Below, in pieces: positions 1 to 64,000 of a stretch of DNA of 64,000 bases. Positions within the stretch are counted from its first letter, which is position 1, and each line of letters opens with the position of its first letter. The notes beneath the pieces are model-generated. The model made no database searches. It was not told where the DNA came from and saw only the letters and a list, made by a program, of their open reading frames with translations. Both the position numbers and the translations under genes were made by a program. Source of the stretch: Cyanidioschyzon merolae (Eukaryota); the NCBI GenBank assembly GCA_000091205.1, contig AP006491.2. One strand, given 5' to 3'.

Positions 1-702
1 TGAGCGAGGTGACGAGCCGCGGAGCCGACATTGAAGCTTTTCGGGAGTCCATGGAAGGTCCGCGTTGCTCATTGGGATACGCTGTGGGAAGAGTACACCA
101 AGCGCCGGTGGGCTCGTCTGCGTAAGAATCTGTATTGTGGTAAGCAACGTGCATTTGCCAACTTTTTCAATGCGTTGAGCGCCCTCAAGGAGAATGAAAG
201 TCAGAGGCTCGTCGTAGCGTACGGAGCAGAGCGCTGGGCGTCCAAAAAAGGGACTACACCAGCTCCGTCGACAAGAACGTACAAGGAGTGCGCACGGCGT
301 TTCGCTACGATACCTGTAGACGAGTTCCGAACATCGTATACACACCACGAACTGGGGTGTACGCATCACAGAGTGGAGATGGAAACGTGCCAGAGGAGTC
401 CTGAGGATATAAAAAAATACGGAGCGCTGATGGAGGGGCAAATGGAAAGGAGGGCGAAATTTAGCGGATTGCTTGCATTAGTAAGTACACTCAATGATGG
501 CAAGAAACGGATGGAATTCGTGAACAGAGACTTTCACGCAGTGATCAATGTAAGATGTGCGGTAATGGAGAAAAGGCCTCGATACTGGACACGAGAGAAC
601 TTTGTTGGACAACCTCTCAAAGTGGAACTATATAAGAAAAAGCTGGAAGCAGTAATGGGTGGCCGGTCCAAAAAAACTGGGAGGCGTCAGCACATCAGTT
701 AG
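1..702 (+). CDS. TnpB-like (Fanzor-type) RuvC nuclease, copy A, 5'-truncated by window edge. It reads in frame 3 to nt 121, has a 58-nt intron at 122-179, then frame 1 from 180 to 702 (stop).
   Basis: C-terminal half has TnpB hallmarks: '[20 protein letters not shown]' (TSQ.C..CG-like zinc finger region) and '[20 protein letters not shown]' (RuvC-III D.NAA.NI-like motif). It is ~97% identical to the 54355-55347(-) ORF. The upstream frame ([20 protein letters not shown]...) matches the C-terminus of the 55253-56173(-) ORF. Confidence 0.6.
122..179 (+). other. Candidate spliceosomal intron (58 nt) in Fanzor-like gene copy A.
   Basis: Donor G|GTAAGA at 122, polypyrimidine stretch CTTTTTC, acceptor TTGAG| at 179. 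Phase-2 junction GC|C joins the upstream frame to the downstream RuvC-II/Zn/RuvC-III frame exactly. The upstream frame stops at 123-125 if unspliced. Confidence 0.5.
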
Positions 703-752
703 AGACGATTTGTCTAGGGCGCGTTCGCCGCCACTGCTGAACACCGTCGGCG
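600..752 (+). ncRNA. Candidate omega-RNA (reRNA) scaffold region of Fanzor copy A (ORF 3' end to element terminus).
   Basis: In TnpB/Fanzor systems the guide RNA is encoded at the element's 3' end. This segment is conserved even in the otherwise degenerate copy C. Confidence 0.25.
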
Positions 753-8829: not shown

Positions 8830-9165
8830 CGCTGCGCTGCGCGTTTGCATCGGGTGCTGATCCTCGAGCCGACGCCCTCTGTGGTATAGAAAAGCTGTTC
8901 TTGCTCAATGAAGTATCTGCTCCAGCGGCTAAGTTCCCAAGGCGGATGATTAGGTTAGGTACTAGGCACACACGACAGGACGTACGAAACGACCAGAATA
9001 TCCGAGAAGAAGTATAGGTAATGGAACTTGGAGGTAGGGCGTTTGATAGATACTCCACCTCGCACTGAAAAAATAACACAAAAAAGTTTGAAAAGAAAAA
9101 TGCGCATCATCGGAGAACGCTGGCACAAGTAAACGTTTTGTCCATGAAAAACATCCGGTGCTGAT
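8830..9165 (+). repeat. Interspersed repeat family R1, copy B.
   Basis: 'CCTCGAGCCGACGCCCTCTGTGGTAT...GTACGAAACGACCAGAATATCCGAGAAGAAGTATAGGTAATGGAACTTGGAGG...CACTGAAAAAATAACACAAAAAAGTTTGAAAAGAAAAATGCGCATCATCGGAGAACGC' aligns to the copies at 2918, 16030, 39520(-) and 57590. Confidence 0.55.
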
Positions 9166-11605: not shown

Positions 11606-12010
11606 GTGCGTTCGTTTTTGAAGGACAAAAACCCAAGGGAAAGGCATGCACATGTTAGTCAGGGATCCTGGCGGGTCGATGTCGCGGGCTACCAGGAAAA
11701 ACGACAAAATTCTCTTCTCGCCTACCATCGAGCGAAGATGCGCAAGTATCCGAGAAGAATAGGGGATATAGGCAATGAAACGTACTTGCCCGAAAGTATG
11801 ACGACGAGACTGCAGTGGCACAGAGGGCACGAATTCGAGGACTCCTTTCATCGGTGAGTTCCACCAGCGGCAATAAACGCATGGAGTTCGTGAACCGAGA
11901 CTTTAACACCGCCATCAATATCAGACGATGTGTGGTGCTGAAAATTAGGACCGACCGGCTGACGAGAGCGAATCTCCTGGGCTAGCCCCTCAGATTCGAA
12001 GTGCACACGG
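11606..12010 (+). pseudogene. Degenerate remnant of a Fanzor/TnpB-like gene (RuvC-II to RuvC-III region only, stop-interrupted).
   Basis: Translation gives 'RVDVAGYQEKR' (cf. '[11 protein letters not shown]') and '[49 protein letters not shown]' (cf. copy A '[49 protein letters not shown]'). It lies in a low-GC island at 10.7-12.1 kb. Confidence 0.5.
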
Positions 12011-12374
12011 CGAAGCTGCAGCCGAGAGCAGGCGACCGGTTCGAAAAGGCTGGTGACGCGTCTGCGTATCGGTGGATACATGCGCATTCAATATTTGTAC
12101 AGCTTTGTGCTTTTTTAGGACGATCTGAACAATTAGATATCCTAAATGGGCCGCAAAGCATCCATTGCGAGTGATGGAAACAGCATCAGCGACAAAACTA
12201 CATCTAATGATTTCTAAATAGATCTTATCAAACTAAACGAACAAAACGATCCTTGGCCTCATCAGGTTCCTAGATGCATCATGGACGCCCCCCGCCACGC
12301 GCAATCTTTCCCGCGTTTTTCCGCTTCGCATTGGAGCTGCAGAGACGGCACCGAGTACTTGCACAGAGGAAGCC

Positions 12375-16029: not shown

Positions 16030-16345
16030 TCCGTCCCATTAAAGTCAGACTTGGATGTTTGAAGAAACGAGTAGGTGAGCGTGTGAGCGCTGGTCCAATA
16101 GCATGCGTTCGCTTCGCGCTCCCGCAGGCAGTAGGTCTGTCTGCGCAACTCGCAGGCTCCCAGAATGACAATGAATCCCGACCCTGTGCCGAATAAGGCA
16201 CGCCTCCAGCCGACACCCTCTATGGTATGAGAGAGCCGCTCTGCTGCCGTGCCACACCTGCACCAGCGATAAAAGCGCTCTGGTGGATACTAGCGACAGG
16301 CACTCGGCCTCAGAACAGCACCTATAAAACGACCAGTACACCCGC
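16030..16345 (+). repeat. Interspersed repeat family R1, copy C (5' portion).
   Basis: 'TTCGCGCTCCCGCAGGCAGTAGGTCTGTCTGCGCA...CCCAGAATGACAA...GAAACGACCAGTACA' matches 57660-57900 (copy E). Confidence 0.5.
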
Positions 16346-16734
16346 AAGCAGGTCCAAGTCAACGCTCTTTAAAATAGAGCGAAGCATGATGGGCGCGCTC
16401 AGTGCTTTCGATGTCCATCCCGCACAATCTGGGATCTATGGTTCATAGGAACGTTGAATCAAAATAGAACAAAAAGACTAAAACTGCCCACGATGAACGC
16501 TCCGATCTCGTCGGAGGCACGGCCGGGTGTCGTGCCGCGAGGTGCGTGCTCGCGGCGCCGCGCCGTGCGCTCGCGGCTCGACGCGGCCTGGATCTGCAGC
16601 CGCTGGATTCGCGGAAGACTTTGCACTGTAGGCGTGTGCAGCCGCAGGGAGTTGTGTGTGTGTGCTTGTGTCTGCGCGTGCGAACACCTTCTTGTTCAGA
16701 CTTTGACACTTACTTAGCTTGAGCGTTTTCCAGC

Positions 16735-17724: not shown

Positions 17725-20700
17725 TTTCCAGGATCTCTTGCGCAAGTATTCTAAGGATAAGGTGTGACCTGGCACGAATCCGTGCCCGCTCAGGGTCGCG
17801 GTTGCATCGGCGGGGACTTGGCGTCTTGTAGTAGTTACAACGTAAAGCAGTGAATTCTGGAATACCCGTACCAGCACGCCCTAACTGCTTTCAGGTAGGT
17901 ATTCATCAAAACAAATGTTTCCTGTAGATACGAGACAGGTCGCCGGACGACTGAATAATGACCATGCTGGCTGGCGAAAAGCGCCATGCTTGAAAAATGC
18001 AGTCATTCTACGGTCAGCGGATGGATAAGCCACGTCTCTCCTGCTCCTCATTCTTAACGTCGTGCACCTGAAACGGTTTTTGTCAAACTCTATTGCAGGA
18101 CGCTCTCCTCGTCAATCGATGCGTTGTTTAGGAAATACCACGAGAAGAGCCACAAGCAGTGCATTCTCCATTCCGTTGGTACGAGCGTTGATCAAGAGAC
18201 CCGAATGGATGCAGAAAACAGCGCGCGTCTATGGGAGCGAATCCCGTGTTGATCAACGCACTGTCGACTCGAGACTGTTACGCGAACGTGCACGACATGA
18301 GGACAGACATTCGTCTCACTCGACGAAACCTCGTTCGGGGGAAACGTCAGACCTTTGTATGGGCACTCAGAGAGGAGCAATTCGGTGTTCTTTAGAAAGA
18401 GAAAAGGGATAAGACGAGAATGTCAGCCCTGGTGACGATTCGTTCGTATGGTAGGCCCCACAAAAAGCCCACTGGACAAGAGCTTCGAAAATCCATTTTT
18501 CGTTGAAACGCTCCGAGCATATACCTATTGATATTCTTTCGCCCTGCTCGTGGATTACGTCATTTCGTATCATTCAAAAGTGGTCAAGTGGTAAGCGACT
18601 GAGATTCATGTTGAGCTGCTCTTCGCGCCAGTCAGTTCTCCCAGGTTTCATGGAGTCCTGGACGTCTTTCCCTTTTGTCCAACGCGACTTGGACGCTCAC
18701 ATATCTGTAGACGGGTCACTTGCATCCGTGACACTGTTCTTCAGCACGTTACTCTCTAGTTTCAACAATTCTGGAACACACTGCTCCTCCTCTGCTCATG
18801 CTGGGCAAGGTGCTGTTCGTTTCGTGGGCGCGCTCGCGACCGAGAACATGACAAAAAAGTACCCGAAAGATAGTAGATATCCACATGCATGGGAAAGGCG
18901 AGCCTCTGTGCTACCGTTCACCCAGTACACCTGAATCCCCTGGAAGAAAAAGATATGATGTAGAGTGACCACATCCATGGCATCCTGCCGATTAAAGAGA
19001 ACGAAGAAGGCTATTGAGAAGGAACCACGAGACAATGAATTGAAAGATCCTTCCGTAAATGGAACCTGGAAGCTCAGGAAGGAGAAACTGTTGAAGCGGA
19101 AACATTGGACCAAAAAACCTGTCGAATCCTCTGCCTTGAAAATCATCAACAGGAAGCATCTGTCGTTAGGATCTGGGACGTCGTTAGAGATCGTGTAGCC
19201 TCTCACTCGAGGAAGGAGTCGCGCATAGTTTCCCTCGTCATGAAACACCGCGTCAAGCAGTTGTTCGAGGGAGTTCCGCATGCATAGCTGCCGTCTGCCC
19301 ACAATTCTACCGGAATTTCTCGATCAGATCTCTGTACGATATTCAAACCATTGCTCGTGACAGATCATCCAACAAGGCCTGATCATTGGATCAGAGATTT
19401 CCGCAGAGAAACACATACATACATACATCCACAAACGCTTCCCAGAAAAACTTGACGTGTTGCCGCGCTTCAAAAACGTCGGCAGGGCAAGTACCAAAAA
19501 AGAATCAAACTATCCAACTTCAAAACCCACATGTAGGTCCAGCGCTTCGCAATCTGCACTCGGTAAGCCTTGTATACTGAACTCTGTGGTCAACGAGAGT
19601 GGAGACCGATGGAAGGAATTTTTGAGGTGCCGCGGGAGGCGGATGACAAGCCCCTGGCCGAGGAGATTGAAAAGGTCGTGCGTTCGGAGCTTATGTCGCA
19701 AGGAGAGCAAGACTAAACCCAGATTGTCCCAGCTCGTTGTATTGCCATTGGCGTCGGACTAGTCGACGTCGAATCCGAAAGATGGCCGGGGACACCAGGC
19801 TGCATTCCTTGCATCTTGCGCGAAGACGATTCCCTGAACAGCACCCTCAGGAACAGAGCAGACGTTCTCTCCGAATCGGGCGCCCTGGCCTCCTCAAAAA
19901 AGCGTATGCGATGCAGTCTCCATAGGTGACATTCTGGCCTATCCCATCAGGGTCGTGAGTCATGCGCTGTCCTGTATGGTGTCTCTAGTGAGCTACGGCT
20001 GCTCTCCGCACGCAAGTGTGAAGTATTCGAACCAGCGCACGAAGCGCACTGGCGTTGTTCGTACATGTTCTCCCGTTTTATTCATCGACAAACTGGAAAG
20101 AATATTTCGGGGACTCTACAGACAGACGGAATACCGAGGTGCAGGTACACCACGAAACCTACGCCGCACTCGAGTAACGAGACACATTTTCAACCGGCCC
20201 AAGTGGATACAGATAAAAACGGTAGAATATTCGTGGATTCCGCTTTGCAGGGCGTTGTCGTCATCGCTGTATCTCTGAATGAAGAGCACAGAGCCAAAGT
20301 CGTGGACAGGAAGCGGTTGAACCTGATCAGTTTTTTGAAGGCTCAGTATCATCGGAATTCGGGCATGCTAGGTGCCAGGACACCAACGAACAAGTGGAAT
20401 GGAGTGACGGGGTCAGGACCGAAATCGACGCACTAAGCACCGTATTGAGCAGAAGGGGATGCTTTCGAAGCGTCGTTCAGAGACTATTGGAGCGTCCAAA
20501 TGACTCATATGGATGACGTTTGGCAGAGGTACACGAAAGTCACGCTGATGACGCCAACTGTTCCGGTTGTTTGGAGCTCCGCGACGTGCTTTCAGCAACT
20601 GGGTCAGTACGTTGGAAATAGAAACGGCGTACAAGTCGGGTATTTGGATTTATTCCATGGCGATAAATACGCAGTTCAGCGCATAGCTGCGCTTATACTC

Positions 20701-21523
20701 CTTCAACGTGAGCGCACAACGAGTAACCGATTCCATTCTATACAATTCCCATCGAAGCAATCAGGAAGACATCCACACGTCACGAGCACGGGTGCCTGCT
20801 GAAACTGGTAGACAAGTCGCGCATGAAACAGAGCAGAACGTACGATATGGAGTCCGACCAGTTGACCAAACATCAGATGACGGTACAATCGAAAGTGAGA
20901 GGTTCGCTATGGTATGGTTCCAACGGCGAAAAGGCGCGCAAACTCTTTCCCCACCCGGTCTTGAAGGTCTCGATCGACATCCGCAAATCTGGACTACACC
21001 CGAAGGTTCCAGCGGTAAAGTTCCGCGCGAACCTGCAAGCGAATCATCTTGTACTCCATATGGACATCGTGCTGAAACGCTGAAGAATTCCACTGAGATA
21101 AAGCGTTGACCTGGGGGCTGCGGGCACTGGATTCCCATCTGGAGCAACGCACTCATATGGTACAGTTCAGCAATTCATCAAGGTAAGTGCGCCGAATGGA
21201 TCTGCTTCTGGGACGGTTTCCACGGGCAACTGGTGATCCATCATTGTGTTCCAGTATTCAGTATGATTGAGAATACGACGTAAACACTGTTGGAGCACAA
21301 CGCTTGAGGGCGCTCGCTGCTCCACGTGCCCAAACGCCACCAAGGAGTAGCGAGCAGCAGCAAGCATCATGCCCGTACGAGTGTGGTGTGCAGGGCACTC
21401 CTTTTGTCTGCGGATATAGCGCTTTTCATGGTTGTGGACAGGAAAATCTCACTAGATTTGTACGCCGGAGCAATGACCGGGGAAGAGAACTCAGCTTCTC
21501 CGAAGATGGGGTCCCGTTCCAAT

Positions 21524-39519: not shown

Positions 39520-39900
39520 TTCGCGCACGCGTGATCGATTTTTTTTCATGGACAAAACGTTAACTTAGGGCAGCGTACTCCGATTATGCGCATTTTTCTT
39601 TTGTTACTTTTTTTTTTTGTGTTTTTTCAGTGCGAGGTGAGGTATTCATCAACCGCCTACCTTCATGTTACATTACCTATACTTCGTCTCGGATATTCTG
39701 GTCGTTTCATACGTCCTATCGTGTGCCTAGTGCCTGGCGAAAGCGACAGCAATAGCGCCTATAGCGCCGGTGCGGTCGCTGCACGGAGACAGAACGGCGT
39801 TGCCGTACCACAAAGGGCGTCGGCTCGAGGCGTGGTTCACTCGACGTAGAATCGGGTCTCGTCGTCAGTTTGTGCTCGGAGAGTCTGCGGATGCAGGCTT
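39520..39900 (-). repeat. Interspersed repeat family R1, copy D (inverted orientation).
   Basis: The reverse complement of 39560-39720 reads 'AGGACGTATGAAACGACCAGAATATCCGAGACGAAGTATAGGTAATGTAACATGAAGGTAGGCGGTTGATGAATACCTCACCTCGCACTGAAAAAA...', matching copies B and E. Confidence 0.55.
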
Positions 39901-41405
39901 GTCTTCGTTGCACGACACGCTGGAGAAACTTGGCTGTTAGGATGAATCCTGGGAGCCGCCTCTCTCCTTCGTGATCATGCATGGAATGCGTTGTTGTCGG
40001 TTGGCAAGGCGGATTTGTGCTTGACACCCACCAGTGGGTAGGCGCAGAAAGCAGTGGGCCCGTGTGCGCACCCGATTCGCTGGACCTTCCGCCTAGAAGG
40101 TAGCGTGTGAGTTTGTTCGCCACTAATGAGCGCTGAGGCTCGGTTAGCGGACCATCAGTTACCAGTGCTACACTCAGAGTGAGTGTCCGGCCTTCGGCTA
40201 CCACGCTGATGCCCAGCTGCTGCTGTCCTTCAAGGAGCTCGCTGCGCTCCTGCTTCCAGCGCGGGCACTGTAAGCCAAAAATATGTCAGCGTCTCGGGGA
40301 TCTCATCCCCACTCGCGTGATCGATGCAGGCGCACACCTTGCACGCATGCGCTGGAGACACGTGTACGCACGGAGGCGCTGTGCGGGGCGCTGCACGCCC
40401 AACGCCATCTGCGTGCGGGCGAGATCGCAGCTGCCACGTGGCATTTGCGCATCAGTGCTGCTGATGCCGATACCTGCTTCCGTGCGCCACCGGGGAACCT
40501 CGCCGAGCAGCGTGATCGGCCACACTGCCGCCGTGTGCGTATGAATGCGTGTGCGTGTGTGTGTGTGTTCATTTCGCAACCCGTTTGTTGCGTGTGCATT
40601 GTTGACGAACTGCGCATTTGCCTATCGCCTAGTGAAAGGGGCGTTTACGAGAGCACTGCAGGGTTTCGCGGGTGACACTCTTGTTGTTTTACGTAAAAGG
40701 CGTTATTTTCCAATGCTGTCGTTCGTTTCTGCGTTGTGGTGGCATGCGCGACACGGTGTGGATATGCCGGGGTTCTTGCCCGGAGTGCGCTGCGGCCTCT
40801 CGTCTGGGCTTGTTCGGAACCGAATGATATGGTCGGCTGCCACAGCGGCCAAGGGTGGGAAACCCAAAGAGGCTAGTCGCGAGCAGGCGAAGCGCCCCGA
40901 ACGCAAGGACGACGACAGGGGCTTTCAAAAGGGTGGCGGCGGTGGTGGCGGTGGTGGTAACGGCAGCGGCAAACCTACCAAGCGCGACAAGTAATGTGGA
41001 AATAGCGGCGTTTAGCGGTGGCAAGACGGCGTGCAAGCGTTCGGAGGAGCGTCATGGAAGCCTGTATGCGGGTGGCGTGCAGCTAGGTTTCCGGTCAGAG
41101 AGCGTTACGTAAACGAGAACTGGTCTTCGTGACATCGTTTGCTGCATCATTCGCCATTTGGACGTCCAGAACAGCGCTTTCGAGCTCGCATATGCCGTGT
41201 TTTTTCTCTCTCTCAGTCGCGTTGGTATGTCAGCAATGCGAAACGATTGCGAGAGCGGAACCGGAAAACGCGTATCCTCGCATACACGGCTGGACGTTGT
41301 GCAGCCACGAGGCGGCAAGTCGCCAGGCACCTCAGTTCCCTGCATCGCTGGCGCGATACTCCTTACCTAAAGGTAGCCGCGCTCGGGTTGTCCGCCGCAT
41401 TTTCC

Positions 41406-54354: not shown

Positions 54355-56173
54355 TCAGGGGCGCTCCCCAGAACACATCACAACGAGTGCGCACGCTGCT
54401 AATGCGAGAACGCGCACAAACCCCAGCCACCCGACACGCTGTGTATATAATAGGGACAAACATTTTGTCCGCAGCGTAAGCACTATATACTGAACTGAAA
54501 GAAAGAGTTGGTAAACTTCGTTCACGCACCGCGCAGTGTCGTAGTCACCGGCCGAAATGAAGCTCGTAAGAAACGAATGAATGGAGGGCTGTAGCTCGCA
54601 CGGCCGGCGGCGGTGGCTCGCACGGCCGCCGACGGTGTTCAGCAGTGGCGGCGAACGCGCCTTAGACAAATCGTCTCCACCTGATGTGCAGACGCCTCCC
54701 AGTTTTTTGGACCGGCCACCCACTACTGCTTCCAGCTTTTTCTTATATAGTTCCACTTTGGTAGGTTGTCCAACAAAGTTCTCTCGTGTCCAGTCTGGAG
54801 GCCTTTTCTCCATTACCGCACATCTTACATTGATCACTGCGTGAAAGTCTCTGTTCACGAATTCCATCCGTTTCTTGCCATCATTGAGTGTACTTACTAA
54901 TGCAAGCAATCCTCTAAATTTCGCCCTCCTTTCCATTTGCCCCTCCATCAGCGCTCCGTATTTTTTTATATCCTCAGGACTCCTCTGGCACTTTTCCATC
55001 CCCACTCTGTGATGCGTACACCCCAGTTCGTGGTGTGTATACGATGTTCGGAACTCGTCTACAGGTATCGTAGCGAAACGCCGTGCGCACTCCTTGTACG
55101 TTCTTGTCGACGGAGCTGGTGTAGTCCCTTTTTTGGACGCCCAGCGCTCTGCTCCGTACGCTACGACGAGCCTCTGACTTTCATTCTCCTTGAGGGCGCT
55201 CAACGCATTGAAAAAGTTGGCAAATGCACGCAGCTTACCACAATACAGATTCTTACGCAGACGAGCCCACCGGCGCTTGGTGTACTCTTCCCACAGCGTA
55301 TCCCAATGAGCAACGCGGACCTTCCATGGACTCCCGAAAAGCTTCAAAGTCCGCTCCTTGACTCGTCACCTCGCTCAAAGCTTCTAGGTGATCCTTCATT
55401 CCTGAATTCCAGCTCTCGATTTTCTTCCCCGCATTCATGATTCCCGATTCTCGATAGTATCTAGCTCTCGAGAACCTCAATAGACGCATGTCTTTCTGAC
55501 GTAAACTACCGTCAGTACCATCTTCCGCACACTTCGGTGCTGCGATGGTGATGATATTTGTGTTTCCGGGGTCCGCGCCAACGACAAAGTCGATATCTTG
55601 CACTTTCTGCGTCGCAGGAGCCGCCTTGTTGTTATCTTCATGCTTCGTCGCGTCAACGACCAGGTCGTTATCCTCCACCTCCTGCATCGCAGGATTCGCC
55701 TTCTTCTTCTCTTCATGCTTCCCCGCGTCAACGACAAGGTCGTTATCCCCCACTTCCTGCGTCATAAGACCCGCCTCCTTCTCATTTCCTTCCTTCGCCG
55801 CGTCAACGAGAAAGTCATTATCCTCCAACTCGTGCGTCTCTGGATCCTCCTCTTTGTTTTCTTCGTTCTTGGTCACGGGCGTAGCCGAGGGCGGACCAGG
55901 ACGATCTGTCTTCAAGCGCCGATAGTGTACACACATGGCTACTCCATCGGTTTCGATCATCCCAGTGAATATCTTTTGTTTGCTCACTCTCAGGCGTTTG
56001 AAATTGAAGATGTTCTTTAAGTACGTCTCCCGGTTTTCACCGGAGAATTCTTCCCTGCTGACACTGAATTCGGGACTGATCTCCTTCATGATGCCGTAAA
56101 GGACTCTGGAGTCGATGGTCACAAAATGTGACTTGATATTGGACATCGGAATCACGTTAAAGCGCTTCCCCAT
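54355..56173 (-). CDS. TnpB-like (Fanzor-type) RuvC nuclease, copy B. Exon 1 is 56173-55257, the intron 55256-55199 and exon 2 55198-54355.
   Basis: RuvC-I '[18 protein letters not shown]', RuvC-II-region '[11 protein letters not shown]', zinc-finger region '[28 protein letters not shown]', RuvC-III '[20 protein letters not shown]'. The same GTAAGA/TTGAG intron as copy A joins the two ORFs. A 1-bp change in an A-run relative to copy A moves the stop from the 54676-equivalent to 54355. Confidence 0.6.
54628..54800 (-). ncRNA. Candidate omega-RNA scaffold region at the 3' end of Fanzor copy B.
   Basis: Same conserved 3' terminal block as copies A and C. The adjacent flank (54600-54627) would supply the guide if the element works like TnpB/Fanzor. 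Confidence 0.25.
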
Positions 56174-56199
56174 TAGGAAAGCCTTCCGTCTCTCCTACT

Positions 56200-57104
56200 C
56201 TTCATTTGTCTTTTCGCTCAGCTTCATCTCCGCTTCGCGTTCGAGCTCCGGGTCCAAGAACACAAAATACCGTACGACGATGCGATAGTATCTCCCCTGA
56301 TCCTTTTTCAACTCTGATATCTTTTCTGTTGGATTCACCAGCCCCAAGATTGCACGGCGCTCTTGTATAACCGAACGGATGAGGGAATTCTCATTTGTGC
56401 TCCTGCGTGACGTCTTCTTGTCGACAAATTCGACCTCATCTCCATTCTTACGATCTTTCGTAAAGCCATTGGTAATCGCCTATATTCATTTGAGAGAGCT
56501 GCCTGGGTAGAGTGCAAAAACGGCGCGTACCATGAAACGTTCGAGTTTCACGATCACGTGATTCTCCAGTTTCGTGATGTACTTCGTCGCCCCTTATATG
56601 TAAACATTCGAATCACCCCTGTATGGAGTACTGTTGAAGCTGTAGAGGGGATGTTTTTCGTAAAGGCCATGCACTAGCACATTTTCCCTCCGCGTTTCCG
56701 CTGTGCCAAGCATCAGGTGTCGAATAAATGTCTTACCGAAAAAATCGTCCGGAATCTCGACCGTTTCCAAGTGCGCCACGTTTTCGTACATCTCTCTCGC
56801 CAAATGCATCAGTCTTGACGACGCCTTGAAAATACTCATGGAGTACGAATCGAAACGTTTTTCGATAGCGTCTCACAAATTTTCCCTGTAAGGATGGTTG
56901 ATATGTTTAAGAAGACGGGCTTTCACCAGCATCTCGTCGAACAGTCGTCTTTCTTGCCGCCTTCGACTTAGGGCCTCCCCTTTTGCTTCTTCTTCTTTTC
57001 CTGTTCTTCTGGACTCGGCTCTGTTTTTTGTTTTTATTTCTGGCAGCAGGCGACCCTGGACCTACAGAATCGTCGACTTGCTTTTTCATAGCTTTTCTTT
57101 TCAT
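56200..57104 (-). pseudogene. N-terminal region of the copy B Fanzor gene (K/R-rich NLS-like segment plus putative WED-like domain), interrupted by in-frame stops.
   Basis: 'MKRKAMKKQ...RNKNKKQSRVQKNRKRRRSKRGGPKSK' (56907-57104). Downstream, '...FMVRAVFALYPGSSLK*I*AITNG...' is homologous to the continuous 164-aa ORF of copy C (62119-62613, 'FMIRVAFVLYPGIFREAMLAIIDG'). Confidence 0.4.
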
Positions 57105-57589
57105 TTTTTTTGTGTGAAAAAGAACGCTCTTTGAACCCTTCTATTATATACTGCGAGAAATCAATTGAATATGTTTACTTGAGGGTAGAGACACAATCGA
57201 ACTGGAAACTATGATTTGTTACGACTTCCACGCAAATACAGCTTGCCCGTTAGAACATCAAGAAAACGTGTCGTCACGGTCGCGTTTCTCTTCGAAGGCG
57301 ACAGATGCGTCGTGTCTCGTAAGTGCCATACTTGGAGATGCACGTATCGAGCGCGCCATACAGGAAAAAGGACAGTGACCTACGATTTACAAGAAACGAT
57401 ATAAAATTTTTTCCCGCTCTACGATAAGCGTTTAAGGGGAAATAGATCGCCGTACTATCGGAAGCTTATGTTCGAGGCGGAAGGTCCCGCGAGCCGGTCG
57501 AGTCTACCGGGCTAGAGCTCGGTATGCCTCTAAAGTGGCCGCTGCCGCTGCTGCCGCTGCTGCTGCAAGACCTGCGTAGCTCGTTCGCA

Positions 57590-58095
57590 ACGCATTTTAT
57601 CCTGAGACTATGCACAGGACGCTGCGTTGGGCCTCGCCCTGGTCGCAGTGGAATCCTAGTACAGCACTTCGCGCTGTCGCAGGTAGTAGGTCTGTCTGCG
57701 CATTTTGCATGTTCCCAGAATGACAAATAGCCCTGATTCCGGTTCAGGTGAATCATTCCTCGAGCGGACGCCCTTAGTGGTATGGCAAAGCCGTTCTGTC
57801 TCTGTACAGCACCTGCTTGAGCGGTATAAGCGCTACAGCGGGTGCTCACAACAGGCTCGGCGCTCGATAGAACATACGAAACGACCAGTATATCAGAGAG
57901 GTAGTATGGATAATGGGACTTGAGGACAGGTGCACTATGATCGAGATATCCCCGGAAGCCATCGTGCGTTCCGAATTCTGGGATGCATGGGCAATGCAAA
58001 CGTTCTTTCATCGAAAAGAAAAAAACGCTCCGGAGGCGGACTCGTCATCGAGACGCGCATCGCTCTGGATCGAATCTCCGGAAGGCGCTTCTGGG
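57590..58095 (+). repeat. Interspersed repeat family R1, copy E (longest, ~0.5 kb), abutting the 5' side of Fanzor element copy B.
   Basis: Aligns to copy C over its 5' half ('GCAGGTAGTAGGTCTGTCTGCGCA...CCCAGAATGACAA') and to copies A, B and D over its 3' half ('...ACGAAACGACCAGTATATCAGAGAGGTAGTATGGATAATGGGACTTGAGG...GAAAAGAAAAAAACGCTCCGGAGGCGGAC'). Confidence 0.55.
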
Positions 58096-58402: not shown

Positions 58403-59479
58403 GTGCTCTTTGGAATGACGTCAGGGATCGACGAGGCAGCAGCTGAGCTTCAGGGAAGTCTCTTTGGGGACGTCTCGCCTGCGATCGACACGCCGGGTGC
58501 GGCGCTTGCACGTTCGTACCCCGTCCGCATCACCGTTGTCGGAGCTGGTGACGTTGGCGTTGCTTGCGCCTATAATATTTTGACCCGAGATATTTGTAGT
58601 GAGCTGGTACTGGTGGACGTTCTCAAGGACAAACTCAAGGGTCAAGTTATGGACTTGCAGCATGGAGGTGCGTTCTACAGCACCCGCATCCGGGCTGCCG
58701 AGTCCTACGAGGATACAGCACATTCGGCAGTATGTATTATAACGGCAGGTGTGCGTCAGCGGCCCGGAGAAAGTCGTCTTGAGCTCATGGATCGCAATGC
58801 CGCATTGTTCAAAGGCATTATTCCGCCCCTGGTGCAGTATTCGCCGAACACAATCCTGTTGGTTGTGAGTAACCCCGTTGATCTATTGACACATCTAGCG
58901 TGGCAGATGAGTGGCTTGCCTCGCGAACGTGTGATTGGCTCAGGGACATATTTGGACTCTTCGCGTTTCCGCACACTTCTGGCGCAGCGGCTGGGCATCG
59001 ATACCGCTTCTGTCCAGGCCATGGTACTGGGCGAGCACGGAGACTCCTCGTTTGTGTACCGGAGTGGTATTACGGTTGGTGGCGTGCCGTTGCGAACATG
59101 CTTCGAGCGCATGACCGACGCTGCGAGCGCGTCCACAGCATTCTATGATCTGGTGAAAGGTGTCCATCAGCAAGTTGTAGCCGCGGCTTACGAGGTCATT
59201 AAGCTGAAAGGCTACACCAACTGGGCCATTGGCAGCGCTGTTGGAAGCATCGTTACAACGATTGTGCATGATCGGCGCAAAGTGCTGCCAATAACGACGC
59301 ATGCGGGCTCGTTGCGAGGCCTCGAGTCGGCGGATGTATTCTTGTCGTTGCCTTGTGTGCTAGGTCGGAATGGTGTCGTTGAAGTACTACAAATACTGCC
59401 GTTCATGGAAAGTGACGAGAAAGAAGACCTCCAATCCAGTATAGAGGCACTCCAGAGCACGCCGAAGAAAGCATCTTGA
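58403..59479 (+). CDS. L-lactate dehydrogenase (LDH/MDH superfamily, LDH-type motifs).
   Basis: 'ITVVGAGDVGVACAY' (GxGxxG), 'DVLKDKLKGQVMDLQHG', 'IITAGVRQRPGESRLELMDRN', 'LLVVSNPVD', 'GSGTYLDSSRFR', and 'LGEHGDSS' (the LDH-type GEHGDS rather than MDH GGHGDT). Confidence 0.85.
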   Translation: MLFGMTSGIDEAAAELQGSLFGDVSPAIDTPGAALARSYPVRITVVGAGDVGVACAYNILTRDICSELVLVDVLKDKLKGQVMDLQHGGAFYSTRIRAAESYEDTAHSAVCIITAGVRQRPGESRLELMDRNAALFKGIIPPLVQYSPNTILLVVSNPVDLLTHLAWQMSGLPRERVIGSGTYLDSSRFRTLLAQRLGIDTASVQAMVLGEHGDSSFVYRSGITVGGVPLRTCFERMTDAASASTAFYDLVKGVHQQVVAAAYEVIKLKGYTNWAIGSAVGSIVTTIVHDRRKVLPITTHAGSLRGLESADVFLSLPCVLGRNGVVEVLQILPFMESDEKEDLQSSIEALQSTPKKAS

Positions 59480-60644: not shown

Positions 60645-62831
60645 AAACAAAAACGTTGCTGCCGGCAGTGTACAGTAGTGGCGGCAACCGTGCCCTAGAC
60701 AAGAAGTCGCCAACTGACGTGCAGACGCCTTCCCGTCTTTTCCGACCTGCCACCTACTGTGGGTACCATTTGTTCTCATATAGTTGCAGTTCAAGAGGTT
60801 GTCCAACAATGGACTCTCGTGTCACCGCTGGGAGTCTTTTGTCCATTCCCGCACATCTCCGTAGATTGATTGCAGCGTTAAGGACTCGGTTCACGAACTC
60901 CATACGTTTCTTGCGGTTGATAGTCGTACTTACTAGTGCAAATAGTCCACGAGCTTTCCCCCTCCTTTCCATTTGCTCTCCGGTCAGCTGTCCCTTACTT
61001 TTTTATATCATGACGACTCCGCTGGCACTTTTTCCCTCTCCACCCTCTGAAGAGTATATCCCAACTCGTCGTGTGTAACGATGTTCGGAACTCACCCACA
61101 GGTAACGTAGCGAGACCCAGTGCGCACTCCTTGCCCATTCCTGCCGTTGGAGCTGGTGTAGTCCTTTTTTTTTCGGAGCCCAGCTCCCTACACCATATGA
61201 ATCAACGAGCCTCTGACTTGATTCTCTTTCAAGGCGTTCAATCGATTGAAAAAGCTCGCGAATGCGTGATGCTTACCACGGCACAGATTCATACGCAAAC
61301 GAGGCCACCGGGGCTTTGTATACTCGCCCTACAGCGCCACGGAATGAGCAACACGAACTTCCATGAATTTCAGAAAAGCTTGAATGTCCGCTCGTCAGCT
61401 CGTCACCACGCTCAAAGCCTCCAGGTGATCCTTCATTCCTACATTCCACGTAACCATCTTCTTCCTTGCATTCATTATACCGGATTCTCGATAGTATCTC
61501 TCTCTCTCGAAAACCTCAGCAGAAGCATATGTTTGTGGCGTAAGGTGCCGTCAGTGCAATCTTCCCTTCGCTTGTGAACAGCGATGGTTATGATATTCGT
61601 GCACCAGGGACTAAGGCCGACGCCAAAGTGGTTTTCATGGGGCTTATACGTTCCATAGCCCGTCAACCTGTGTTCGTTCTTCGGCAACGCCCGTAAAGAA
61701 GACGGGATAGGACGAGCTGCCTTCAACCGCTGATGGTGTACACATATGTGCGCCACATCGAGATCGATTGTTCCAGTGAATAACCTTTTTTTGGCCGGTT
61801 CGGGACGCTTGAAATCGAAGATATTCTTCTAGTAGGCGTCCCGATCTTCACCGGAGACCTATTTGTTGATTACATCGAGCTATGGATAGATCTCTATCCT
61901 GAAGATGCAAAAGGACTATGGGGTCGATATTCACAAAATGTGACTTGAACGCGCATAACCGACCGACATTGAAGCGCATCTGGAGAAGACTTCAATGTCG
62001 TTTCTCGCACTCGTCTTTTTTTCCACACTCAGCTCCATGCCGACCCTGCGGTCGAGGTCTCGGACCGAAAACATGGAGCAGGGCAGGATGAGAGAGTAAC
62101 AACTCTCTCCGTCGTTTCTCATATCCGAGAGTTTTCTCTTGGGCTGACATGACCCAAGACCGAACGATGTTTTAGAATAGTGGCGCGAATTACAGGAGCA
62201 TCATTCATTATCCTGCGTGATGTCCTCTTGTCGACGAGTCTGATCTCCTGTTCATGCTGGCGATCGTTCTTCATACCATCGATGATTGCAAGCATCGCTT
62301 CGCGAAATATGCCCGGGTACAGCACAAAGGCGACGCGTATCATGAAACAATCGAGGTTTGCCATTTTATGGTTCCTCATATTCGTGAGGCACCTCTTTGC
62401 CCTGTAGTCGTAAATGTCTGCGTCACCCTTGTGTCCAGCACCGAAGACGAGGAATTTGGCGTAATTCTTGAGGAAGGCATGCCCTCGCTCACTTATCCCC
62501 GATGTTTTCCCATTAAAAACAATCAGGTAGTTGATAAAAGTCTTTTGGAAAAATTTTTCCGGAAACATCACTTTCGCGATAAGCGTTACGTCCCGATGCA
62601 GGTCGCTGTCCAAATGCCAACGTCCTAAAGAAAAGCTCCAAACATACCCGGCCTACGATCCGCCACGGTTTCTGATAGCGTCTCGCAACAATCAGTCGTA
62701 CGGATCATTGATATGTTGGAGAAGATAAGATTCCACCACCATCTTGTCGTACAGAAGTCACAATTTCGGCCTTCGATGTAAGGCCCCCCATGTTGCTTCT
62801 TCTTCTTTTCCTGACCCTCTTCGCTAGGCAA
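60645..62831 (-). pseudogene. Fanzor/TnpB-like gene of copy C, pseudogenised. It lacks the 3 extra tandem repeats seen upstream of RuvC-I in copy B.
   Basis: Homologous segments lie in different frames and carry stops. The RuvC-I aspartate context is degraded to 'GLSPW'. Confidence 0.5.
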
Positions 62832-63310
62832 TATGTCTCATTTCATTCTGACATCCGGCAGCACCGGCCACCCCAAACCCACTACATCATACTACATAAG
62901 TGTCAGATTTTTTGGGAGAACATCTCATTGGACGCTTCTGCTTTGAACGGCGAGAATCTGGTGAATAGAGTTACTTTAAGATTGGAACGCCACTGAAGCC
63001 AAAACTATACTTTGCTACGATTCGATCGCAAATACAAGTGGCCCCGATAGAGCAGTCGCTCCAGAAGAGGTCATTACCGCGTTTTTCTTGATCGGAGAGG
63101 CGCACGTTGGGTGACGTGACGGCCAGATTTCGCGATGCGTTACCAGGACGCACGACAGAGAAAATGCAAAAAAATTAACCAATATGCACAAACAGGATAG
63201 CAAGTACTATTGCAACCTAGTGTAAACGTAAAGAAGATGATTTCGCGTATGGTCAAAGTGTTACATTTAATCGGGAGGTCTGCGTGCCGCGAGACTACCG
63301 GCCTGCCCTC
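60645..63310 (-). mobile_element. Fanzor/TnpB-carrying mobile element, copy C (degenerate, multiple frame disruptions).
   Basis: Fragments 'RMEFVNRVLNAAINLRRC' (60754-60972), 'GLSPWCTNIITIA' (RuvC-I remnant, 61475-61756), 'RFNVGRLCAFKSHFVNIDP', an intact 164-aa N-terminal-domain ORF (62119-62613) and the K-rich 'GQEKKKKQHGGPY' segment (62625-62831). The 3' terminal ~100 nt are conserved with copies A and B. Confidence 0.55.
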
Positions 63311-64000
63311 CGTGTGACTTTCAGTGGAGAGTGATATGAGACACTTGGGCAACTCATCCAAAACGCAATTAATTTCGGGACTAGGAGCAGGCATGCTGCG
63401 TCTGAGCACTAACACCGTCGCGGTGAACAGATAGTACGCCGTTTTACGCTACCGCATGCAAATCGTCTGCAAGATCCGCTTGGAGGCTCCAAAGAAAATA
63501 AATCTCCCTGATACCATGTAGCATGAACCAAGCCCCTTCCAACGCGCCCAGTGGTATGTCTGAGCTGCCCTGCTTCCGGAGTGCACCCACAGCGGCGATA
63601 GAGAGGCTACAACGGGTGCTCAAGGTAGGTAAACGGCGCACGATAGAAAGTCAGATACAATCAGTACAGCCGAGATCAGGTAAATGCGACGAAAAGTACC
63701 GAAACTGTTCAGCGTGACGAAATATTTTCCGAAACAAATATCGATCCGGCAATCTCGGCGTCTGGTCAGTAAAAAAGGTTCTGCCGAAACAAACAAAAGC
63801 AAAGCGCTGGAAGGAGATCCATAAGGGCACTGGTGTGCTGGATGTAGATAAGACAGATGCGTATTTGCTCAGATCGTACCGCCGGAAAAAAACCCAAACA
63901 AACCTGGAATCGTAGACATCGCTCTGACAGATGCTTTTGCTCTGAGAACACTGCAGTAATGGGGCATTGCGTCGAATGGGGGAGTGGGGGAAATGGGGGG

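Follow-up and report, generated by a model that had tools for sequence, protein, structure and literature searches.

Decayed CMe-1A Fanzor1 copies of Cyanidioschyzon merolae with a RuvC-II strand lacking the canonical glutamate

In a stretch of 64,000 nucleotides of Cyanidioschyzon merolae DNA (the window), the segment at positions 205-237 is, with a probability that we place at about 93%, the RuvC β4 strand of the Fanzor1 element CMe-1A, a protein whose catalytic triad is completed by a relocated glutamate (Ealt) further downstream, whereas the Glu found at the end of the segment is a private change in dead copies. The original prediction had described the segment as a RuvC-II strand in which the expected Glu is missing and is replaced by another one located two residues downstream. 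Our analysis bears out the first part of this description and assigns the missing catalytic residue to a different position. Both the CMe-1A element and the relocation of the Glu away from the RuvC-II strand are already known (2013 and papers of 2023-2024, respectively).

Results

The flagged segment and its element

The segment consists of 11 codons, AGG CTC GTC GTA GCG TAC GGA GCA GAG CGC TGG (window 205-237, plus strand), whose translation ends in GAERW. It is contained in an ORF spanning 31-702, the 5' part of which is cut off by the start of the window, and the translation of this copy, termed copy A, shows the TnpB/Fanzor '[TS][TS]' and 'RD' motifs further downstream. Its features are:

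205-228 (+), RLVVAYGA, the β4 strand of RuvC ('RuvC-II'), which lacks the canonical Glu (AF2 strand, conservation, SpuFz1 alignment)
229-231 (+), GAG codon of the flagged Glu, a private Gly-to-Glu substitution (CMe-1 consensus, homologue counts, hhalign)
55141-55173 (-), the identical 11-mer in copy B (translation)

The element to which the segment belongs has been described as a Fanzor1 of C. merolae with a consensus of 3,169 bp, no TIRs, about 150 copies in the genome of ~80% identity to the consensus and a consensus protein, CMe-1, of 734 amino acids; it is the only Fanzor1 family listed for this organism (Bao & Jurka 2013, Mobile DNA 4:12; PMC3627910). In the window, copy B matches positions 1-630 of the published CMe-1A 5' consensus at 58013-57373 (78% over 630 nt in blastn), and copy A is 84% identical to the CMe-1 consensus protein over its C-terminal 221 amino acids. 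A Pfam scan of the repaired window protein, the window ORF and P0004, an intact relative, did not return a match. Elsewhere in the family, the distant member P0118 matches PF07282 (Cas12f1-like TNB) below the cut-off and PF26935 is found as precomputed annotation on many homologues.

Copies in the window and their decay

Sequences related to CMe-1A recur across the window, in different stages of decay:

1-752 (+), copy A, 3' part of CMe-1A with the C-terminal RuvC half, in frame 0 from 58 and with a stop at 700-702 (blastn, consensus, hhalign)
54627-58013 (-), copy B, full-length decayed CMe-1A (5' consensus blastn, tblastn across three frames)
60658-63758 (-), copy C, an older, full-length and heavily decayed CMe-1A copy (~76% nucleotide identity, 5' consensus)
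11785-12054 (+), 5'-truncated CMe-1A relic containing the RuvC-III end only (homology to the RuvC-III part)
19177-21080 (+), relic from a divergent Fanzor1 lineage, the second in the window, with decayed catalytic motifs (closest to P0101 and P0102)
57 (+), extra G causing a +1 frameshift in copies A and B (frames compared to intact homologues and the consensus)

At the nucleotide level, copy A (1-752) is 97% identical to 55377-54627 (-) and 76% identical to 61414-60661 (-). None of these alignments extends beyond 751-752, which marks the 3' end of the element. The relic at 19177-21080 (+) shares 26-40% of its amino acids with P0101 and P0102 and ~24-29% with the CMe-1 consensus. Three further fragments, located at 16109-16455 (-), 39656-40102 (+) and 8861-9038 (-), match only the 5' ~630 bp of CMe-1A and probably represent TE-N2_CMe, a short element with the same 5' 635 bp as CMe-1A (PMC3627910).

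The copies have lost their coding capacity in several ways. Copies A and B both read EAFRESME[g]VRVAHW at a place where intact relatives and the consensus contain FMEVRVAHW, and the N-terminal half of copy B is in addition interrupted by five in-frame stops, with one nucleotide deleted close to the 3' end of this copy. Copy A is altered in its RuvC-III region, where NRDFNAAINIRRC has undergone changes of N to H and of A to V and lost one Arg, and in copy C the RuvC-I Asp has turned into Ser, VDEF into VGEF and NRD into NRV. Between copies A and B, 11 nonsynonymous differences in the coding part are accompanied by a single synonymous one, and the two have thus diverged without constraint at the protein level. 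The copies in the window are pseudogenes, none of which can encode a Fanzor. The similarity between copies A and B ends precisely at the 3' terminus of the element. As the frameshift is common to both, they probably descend from a copy that was itself defective and had been mobilised in trans, which fits the published view of a 'non-autonomous family'.

Catalytic triad and the relocated glutamate

In Fanzors, the canonical RuvC-II Glu is known to be replaced by Pro or Gly, with an alternative conserved Glu located ~45-50 residues downstream, six residues ahead of the zinc finger, and this Ealt together with a DPG motif constitutes a hallmark of these proteins. The rearrangement of catalytic residues invoked in the original prediction has thus been published for Fanzors. 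Ealt is placed in the β5/TNB loop in solved Fanzor1 structures, it is part of the set of SpuFz1 metal ligands (D383, N385, E541 and D606) and its mutation to Ala inactivates ApmFz2 (E467A, in a triad formed by D324, E467 and D501). In copy A, equivalent motifs are found downstream of the flagged segment:

316-336 (+), VDEFRTS motif with the Ealt codon at 322-324 (conservation, SpuFz1/PpFz1 alignment, model)
523-540 (+), RuvC-III motif NRDFHA with the catalytic Asp at 529-531 (alignment to SpuFz1 D606, model)

The Ealt codon follows 31 residues after the flagged Glu. The RuvC-III consensus of the family is NRDFNAAINI, with the version of copy A located at 523-552. Copy B contains the complete set, with the RuvC-I motif GADPGNTN at 55579-55556 (-) and its Asp at 55573-55571, Ealt at 55056-55054 and the RuvC-III Asp at 54849-54847 (-). 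The proposed retention of the RuvC aspartates therefore stands for the RuvC-III residue of both copies and for the RuvC-I residue of copy B, whereas the RuvC-I region of copy A is located outside the window.

The relationship to proteins of known structure was established with family profiles, which were needed since phmmer with a single query sequence yielded no match in the PDB. With the family profile A2 (97 sequences), the PDB sequence matches consist of Fanzor1 proteins only, namely PpFz1 (1.1e-21), SpuFz1 (5.4e-15) and GtFz1 (1.6e-10). The triad was mapped by HMMER alignment to chain 8gkh_P, using an offset of 394 for the MBP-fusion that was checked on three published residues:

8gkh_P D777, SpuFz1 D383, motif VVIDPN, family residue D484 (DPG)
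8gkh_P N779, SpuFz1 N385, motif VVIDPN, no family residue mapped
8gkh_P E935, SpuFz1 E541, motif LDEYKTS, family residue E656 (vdEFRTt)
8gkh_P D1000, SpuFz1 D606, motif WNRD, family residue D725 (nRD)

In the same alignments, the counterpart of VDEFRTS in PpFz1 is IDEFRTS. The residue proposed as substitute in the original prediction is thus not the one used by the family, whose Glu is that of VDEFRTS (322-324), aligned with E541 of SpuFz1.

The conservation of these positions is close to complete. E656 is found in all 122 diverse representatives, and so is G623 on the preceding strand (window 223-225), which is also invariant in A2, where the invariant columns include D484, G486, G623 and E656. 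D484 of RuvC-I is present in 122 of 124 sequences, with the Pro of DPG in 114 and the Gly in 123 representatives; R724 is found in 118 representatives and D725 accounts for 117 of 118 residues at its position. In contrast, a Glu on the strand 617-624 occurs in none of the 122 representatives, and the canonical TnpB/Cas12 pattern [IV][IV]E[DN]L is absent. The absence of the canonical RuvC-II Glu from the hydrophobic strand at 205-237, as originally proposed, is thus a property of the entire family. On β4, a Gly appears to take the place of the canonical Glu, although the column that exactly corresponds to the TnpB residue would presumably be one of A621, Y622 and G623.

Conservation at the flagged position

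The flagged Glu, equivalent to residue 625, shows a different pattern. Among the 54 close homologues that cover the strand, the position is occupied by Gly in 49, Glu in two, Ala in two and Val in one, and the two Glu-bearing sequences are P0055 and P0045, of which the latter shares 97% identity with the locus of the window itself. On a larger scale, an exhaustive profile search with a threshold of E ≤ 1e-3 identified 4,117 representative proteins, and the full-length sequences of 119 representatives and five earlier hits (124 in total), aligned with MAFFT, contain Ala in 104, Gly in 15, Ser in three and gaps in two sequences at this column and no Glu. The strand in this alignment follows the pattern h-h-h-A(102)-Y/F(121)-G(122)-[SA]-X-K/G/R-F, where X denotes the flagged position. 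The comparison with many family members that had been suggested as a check thus recovered no Glu at this column in 122 diverse representatives. In a profile alignment, SpuFz1 carries a Ser at the equivalent site, and when the window ORF is aligned to the family profile with hhalign (E 1.5e-39), the Glu falls on a small-residue column.

The description of this Glu as conserved also fails within the element itself. The published CMe-1 consensus contains a Gly (GAGRW) where the window copies contain a Glu (GAERW), in a segment that runs on into FVNRDFNAAINI, and copy C equally has Gly in its version RLVDSYGVGSW (61212-61180). A single transition from G to A at base 230 accounts for the change from Gly to Glu. 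As proposed, the segment is the same in copies A and B, where 205-237 (+) and 55173-55141 (-) match, yet these copies are 97%-identical duplicates and their agreement does not constitute independent evidence. A third instance had been seen in a presumed remnant with the sequence RVDVAGYQEKR. This string is indeed present at 11672-11704 but it is not homologous to the segment: it is located upstream of the sole piece of the relic for which blastn and tblastn detect homology, and in another frame. Its BLOSUM62 score of 8 against the query is reached by 848 of the 95,585 stop-free 11-mers in the window (0.9%), and it is a chance match. Because the flagged Glu arose in already dead copies, at a position reserved for small residues, it has no catalytic role. 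Placed in a live enzyme, at a column that tolerates only Ala, Gly and Ser, the bulky acidic Glu would be more likely to impair function than to compensate.

Structural model of an intact relative

The fold was investigated on the intact relative P0004 rather than on a broken window copy. Its AF2 model, obtained with the A2 alignment, has a mean pLDDT of 83.5 and a pTM of 0.81. In this model, β1 (478-485) includes D484, β4 (617-624) corresponds to RLVVAYGA and a helix (638-648) leads to β5 (650-655), with E656 being the first residue after this strand, whereas D725 is found at the start of a helix comprising 724-737. The positions of E656 and D725 agree with the published Fz1 site. From the alignment to solved structures and from their location with respect to secondary structure elements, D484, E656 and D725 would be expected to cluster at the metal site. 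A Foldseek search of the PDB with the P0004 model returned structures of SpuFz1, PpFz1 and GtFz1 as top seven matches, with E-values down to 1.5e-16 and TM-scores up to 0.72, followed by Cas12 variants (including Cas12f) and ApmFz2 among the lower matches.

The region preceding RuvC-I contains a 75-nt tandem repeat, which is present in 3.5 copies at 55573-55838 (-) of copy B and corresponds approximately to residues ~375-469 of P0004. It encodes an acidic unit of 25 amino acids in a disordered linker just N-terminal to RuvC-I (pLDDT < 50), and its copy number varies among family members.

Zinc knuckle and omega-RNA

In textbook Fanzors, a CxxC…CxxC zinc finger is found six residues after Ealt (regex of Yoon et al.; motif of Bao & Jurka, PMC3627910), and its loss has been reported for some TnpB branches. 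In CMe-1, Ealt is followed by THHELGC and the CxxC motif is absent; in copy A, this region comprises 325-400. Since Bao & Jurka (PMC3627910) list CMe-1 as Fanzor1, we take this absence as a peculiarity of the clade and not as grounds for its exclusion. A CxxC within 14 residues of Ealt is found in only 10 of the 122 diverse representatives, so that the TNB domain in this large Fanzor1 clade probably does not require zinc.

With respect to the guide RNA, no Rfam family was detected at gathering score over the whole 64 kb, and folding of the 3'-terminal 173 nt of copy A was not more stable than that of shuffled sequences (z = +0.26); these results do not point to an omega-RNA candidate.

Neighbouring genes

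Window ORFs encoding PsbO (BAM80144), RACK1 (BAM80140) and L-lactate dehydrogenase (LDH, BAM80156) are exact matches of C. merolae 10D proteins from one chromosome of 810,151 bp. The 3' end of copy A (~752) is located ~130 bp upstream of the start codon of RACK1 (880), and the same order of a Fanzor remnant followed by a WD40 gene is observed in the metagenome contig L001. Copies B and C, which share the same orientation, bracket the LDH gene (58403-59479, +). In C. merolae, LDH exists as several paralogues of identical length (BAM80156, BAM80408 and BAM79100), and CMe-1A repeats might have mediated its duplication.

Discussion

The properties of the family described in this study closely resemble those of structurally characterized Fanzor1 proteins. 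SpuFz1 from Spizellomyces punctatus (PDB 8GKH, 9CEU-9CEZ) shows the same fold (Foldseek E 1.5e-16, TM 0.72) and an equivalent layout of its triad, comprising DP(G/N), a Glu-less β4 with Gly (VVMGD), (L/V)DE(Y/F)(K/R)TS after β5 and NRD, despite a sequence identity to CMe-1 of ~15%. Both differ in the region directly following Ealt, which in SpuFz1 forms a zinc-binding TNB with the motif CxxC…C that has no equivalent in CMe-1, and in the 30-nt inverted repeats of SpuFz1 elements, which are not reported for CMe-1A. The same principle is found in the Fanzor2 ApmFz2 and in the prokaryotic TnpB2, pro-Fanzor and RIIr clades, where Gly or Pro occupies the position of the canonical Glu and an alternative Glu is located 35-50 residues downstream, immediately ahead of the TNB, although these proteins are much smaller, differ in their N-terminal architecture, contain an intact zinc finger and are associated with IS607/IS605. 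Canonical TnpB (ISDra2) and Cas12 proteins share with CMe-1 the RNase H-like RuvC fold and the Asp residues of RuvC-I and RuvC-III at homologous positions, but they carry their Glu on β4 ([IV][IV]E[DN]L), where CMe-1 contains a Gly and its Glu has moved. With respect to the published CMe-1A, the window copies are the same element in the same genome and equally old and decayed as the published copies, which show ~80% identity to the consensus. They are distinguished from the consensus by the frameshift, the stops and private changes that include Gly to Glu in GAGRW and the alteration of NRDFNAAINI.

By analogy to SpuFz1, an intact CMe-1 protein would be expected to act as an omega-RNA-guided RuvC DNA endonuclease that depends on Mg or another divalent metal. 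Its site would be composed of the Asp of D(PG) on β1, of Ealt after β5 and of the Asp of NRD on the subsequent helix, while the invariant Gly of β4 would leave the position of the canonical Glu vacant.

Among alternative interpretations, the proposal that the catalytic Glu has slipped by two residues (AYGAE) and that the flagged residue completes the DED triad draws on its location directly after β4 (617-624), which in sequence is near the canonical Glu of TnpB, and on its presence in both window copies A and B as well as in two database relatives, P0045 and P0055. We consider this proposal extremely improbable, as the residue is not conserved, being replaced by Gly in the consensus, in 49 of 54 close relatives and in copy C and absent from all 122 representatives, as copies A and B, which have a frameshift in common, arose by duplication and are nearly identical, as the support from the presumed remnant rests on a chance match and as the invariant Glu 31 residues downstream aligns with an experimentally defined catalytic Glu. 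The occurrence of the same Gly-to-Glu exchange in copies A and B, in P0045 and in the more distant P0055 could also reflect a once-active sub-lineage of CMe-1A in which an additional acidic residue was located next to the metal site. If true, this would amount to a 'reversion', in part, to a RuvC-II of the canonical type, but the chances of such a scenario are very slim. It appears more plausible that the entire CMe-1 Fanzor1 clade would work without a zinc knuckle than that such an acidic sub-lineage existed.

The original prediction had also considered a nuclease-dead TnpB/Fanzor derivative that was exapted for another, regulatory role. Inactivated and exapted TnpBs are known in prokaryotes, the zinc knuckle of the TNB is missing from the CMe-1 clade and a long-lasting coding capacity has been described for some CMe-1A copies (Bao & Jurka, PMC3627910). 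This option is nevertheless very unlikely in light of the near-invariance of all three catalytic residues (D, E and D) in the family, and of the dispersed, multi-copy nature of the repeat, of which the 64-kb window alone contains five or more copies or relics; this nature is not that of a single-copy domesticated gene. The window copies themselves are broken genes that encode no protein, with frameshifts, stops and an 11:1 ratio of nonsynonymous to synonymous differences. Still less should be expected of an expression of copies A and B at full length by programmed frameshifting (+1) or by splicing of a tiny intron at ~57, a scenario to which we assign next to no chance. The offset of 1 nt is identical in both copies and a GT...AG pair can be drawn around 57-100, yet the reading frame of intact relatives continues across this site without interruption (FMEVRVAHWDALWEEY) and the putative intron, which would remove conserved residues, was rejected on these grounds. 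Moreover, copy B contains five more in-frame stops and another indel, and the divergence between both copies is unconstrained. We thus favour the assignment of the segment to β4 of a decayed CMe-1A Fanzor1 whose triad is completed by Ealt.

Collectively, the importance of these observations beyond a correct annotation is slight. The loci are pseudogenes. The absence of a zinc knuckle from most members of a large Fanzor1 clade might be of modest interest for the engineering of Fanzors. For the annotation of CMe-1A, no catalytic function should be assigned to the flagged Glu, and the positions of the triad in the window copy are fixed with Ealt at 322-324 and the RuvC-III Asp at 529-531.
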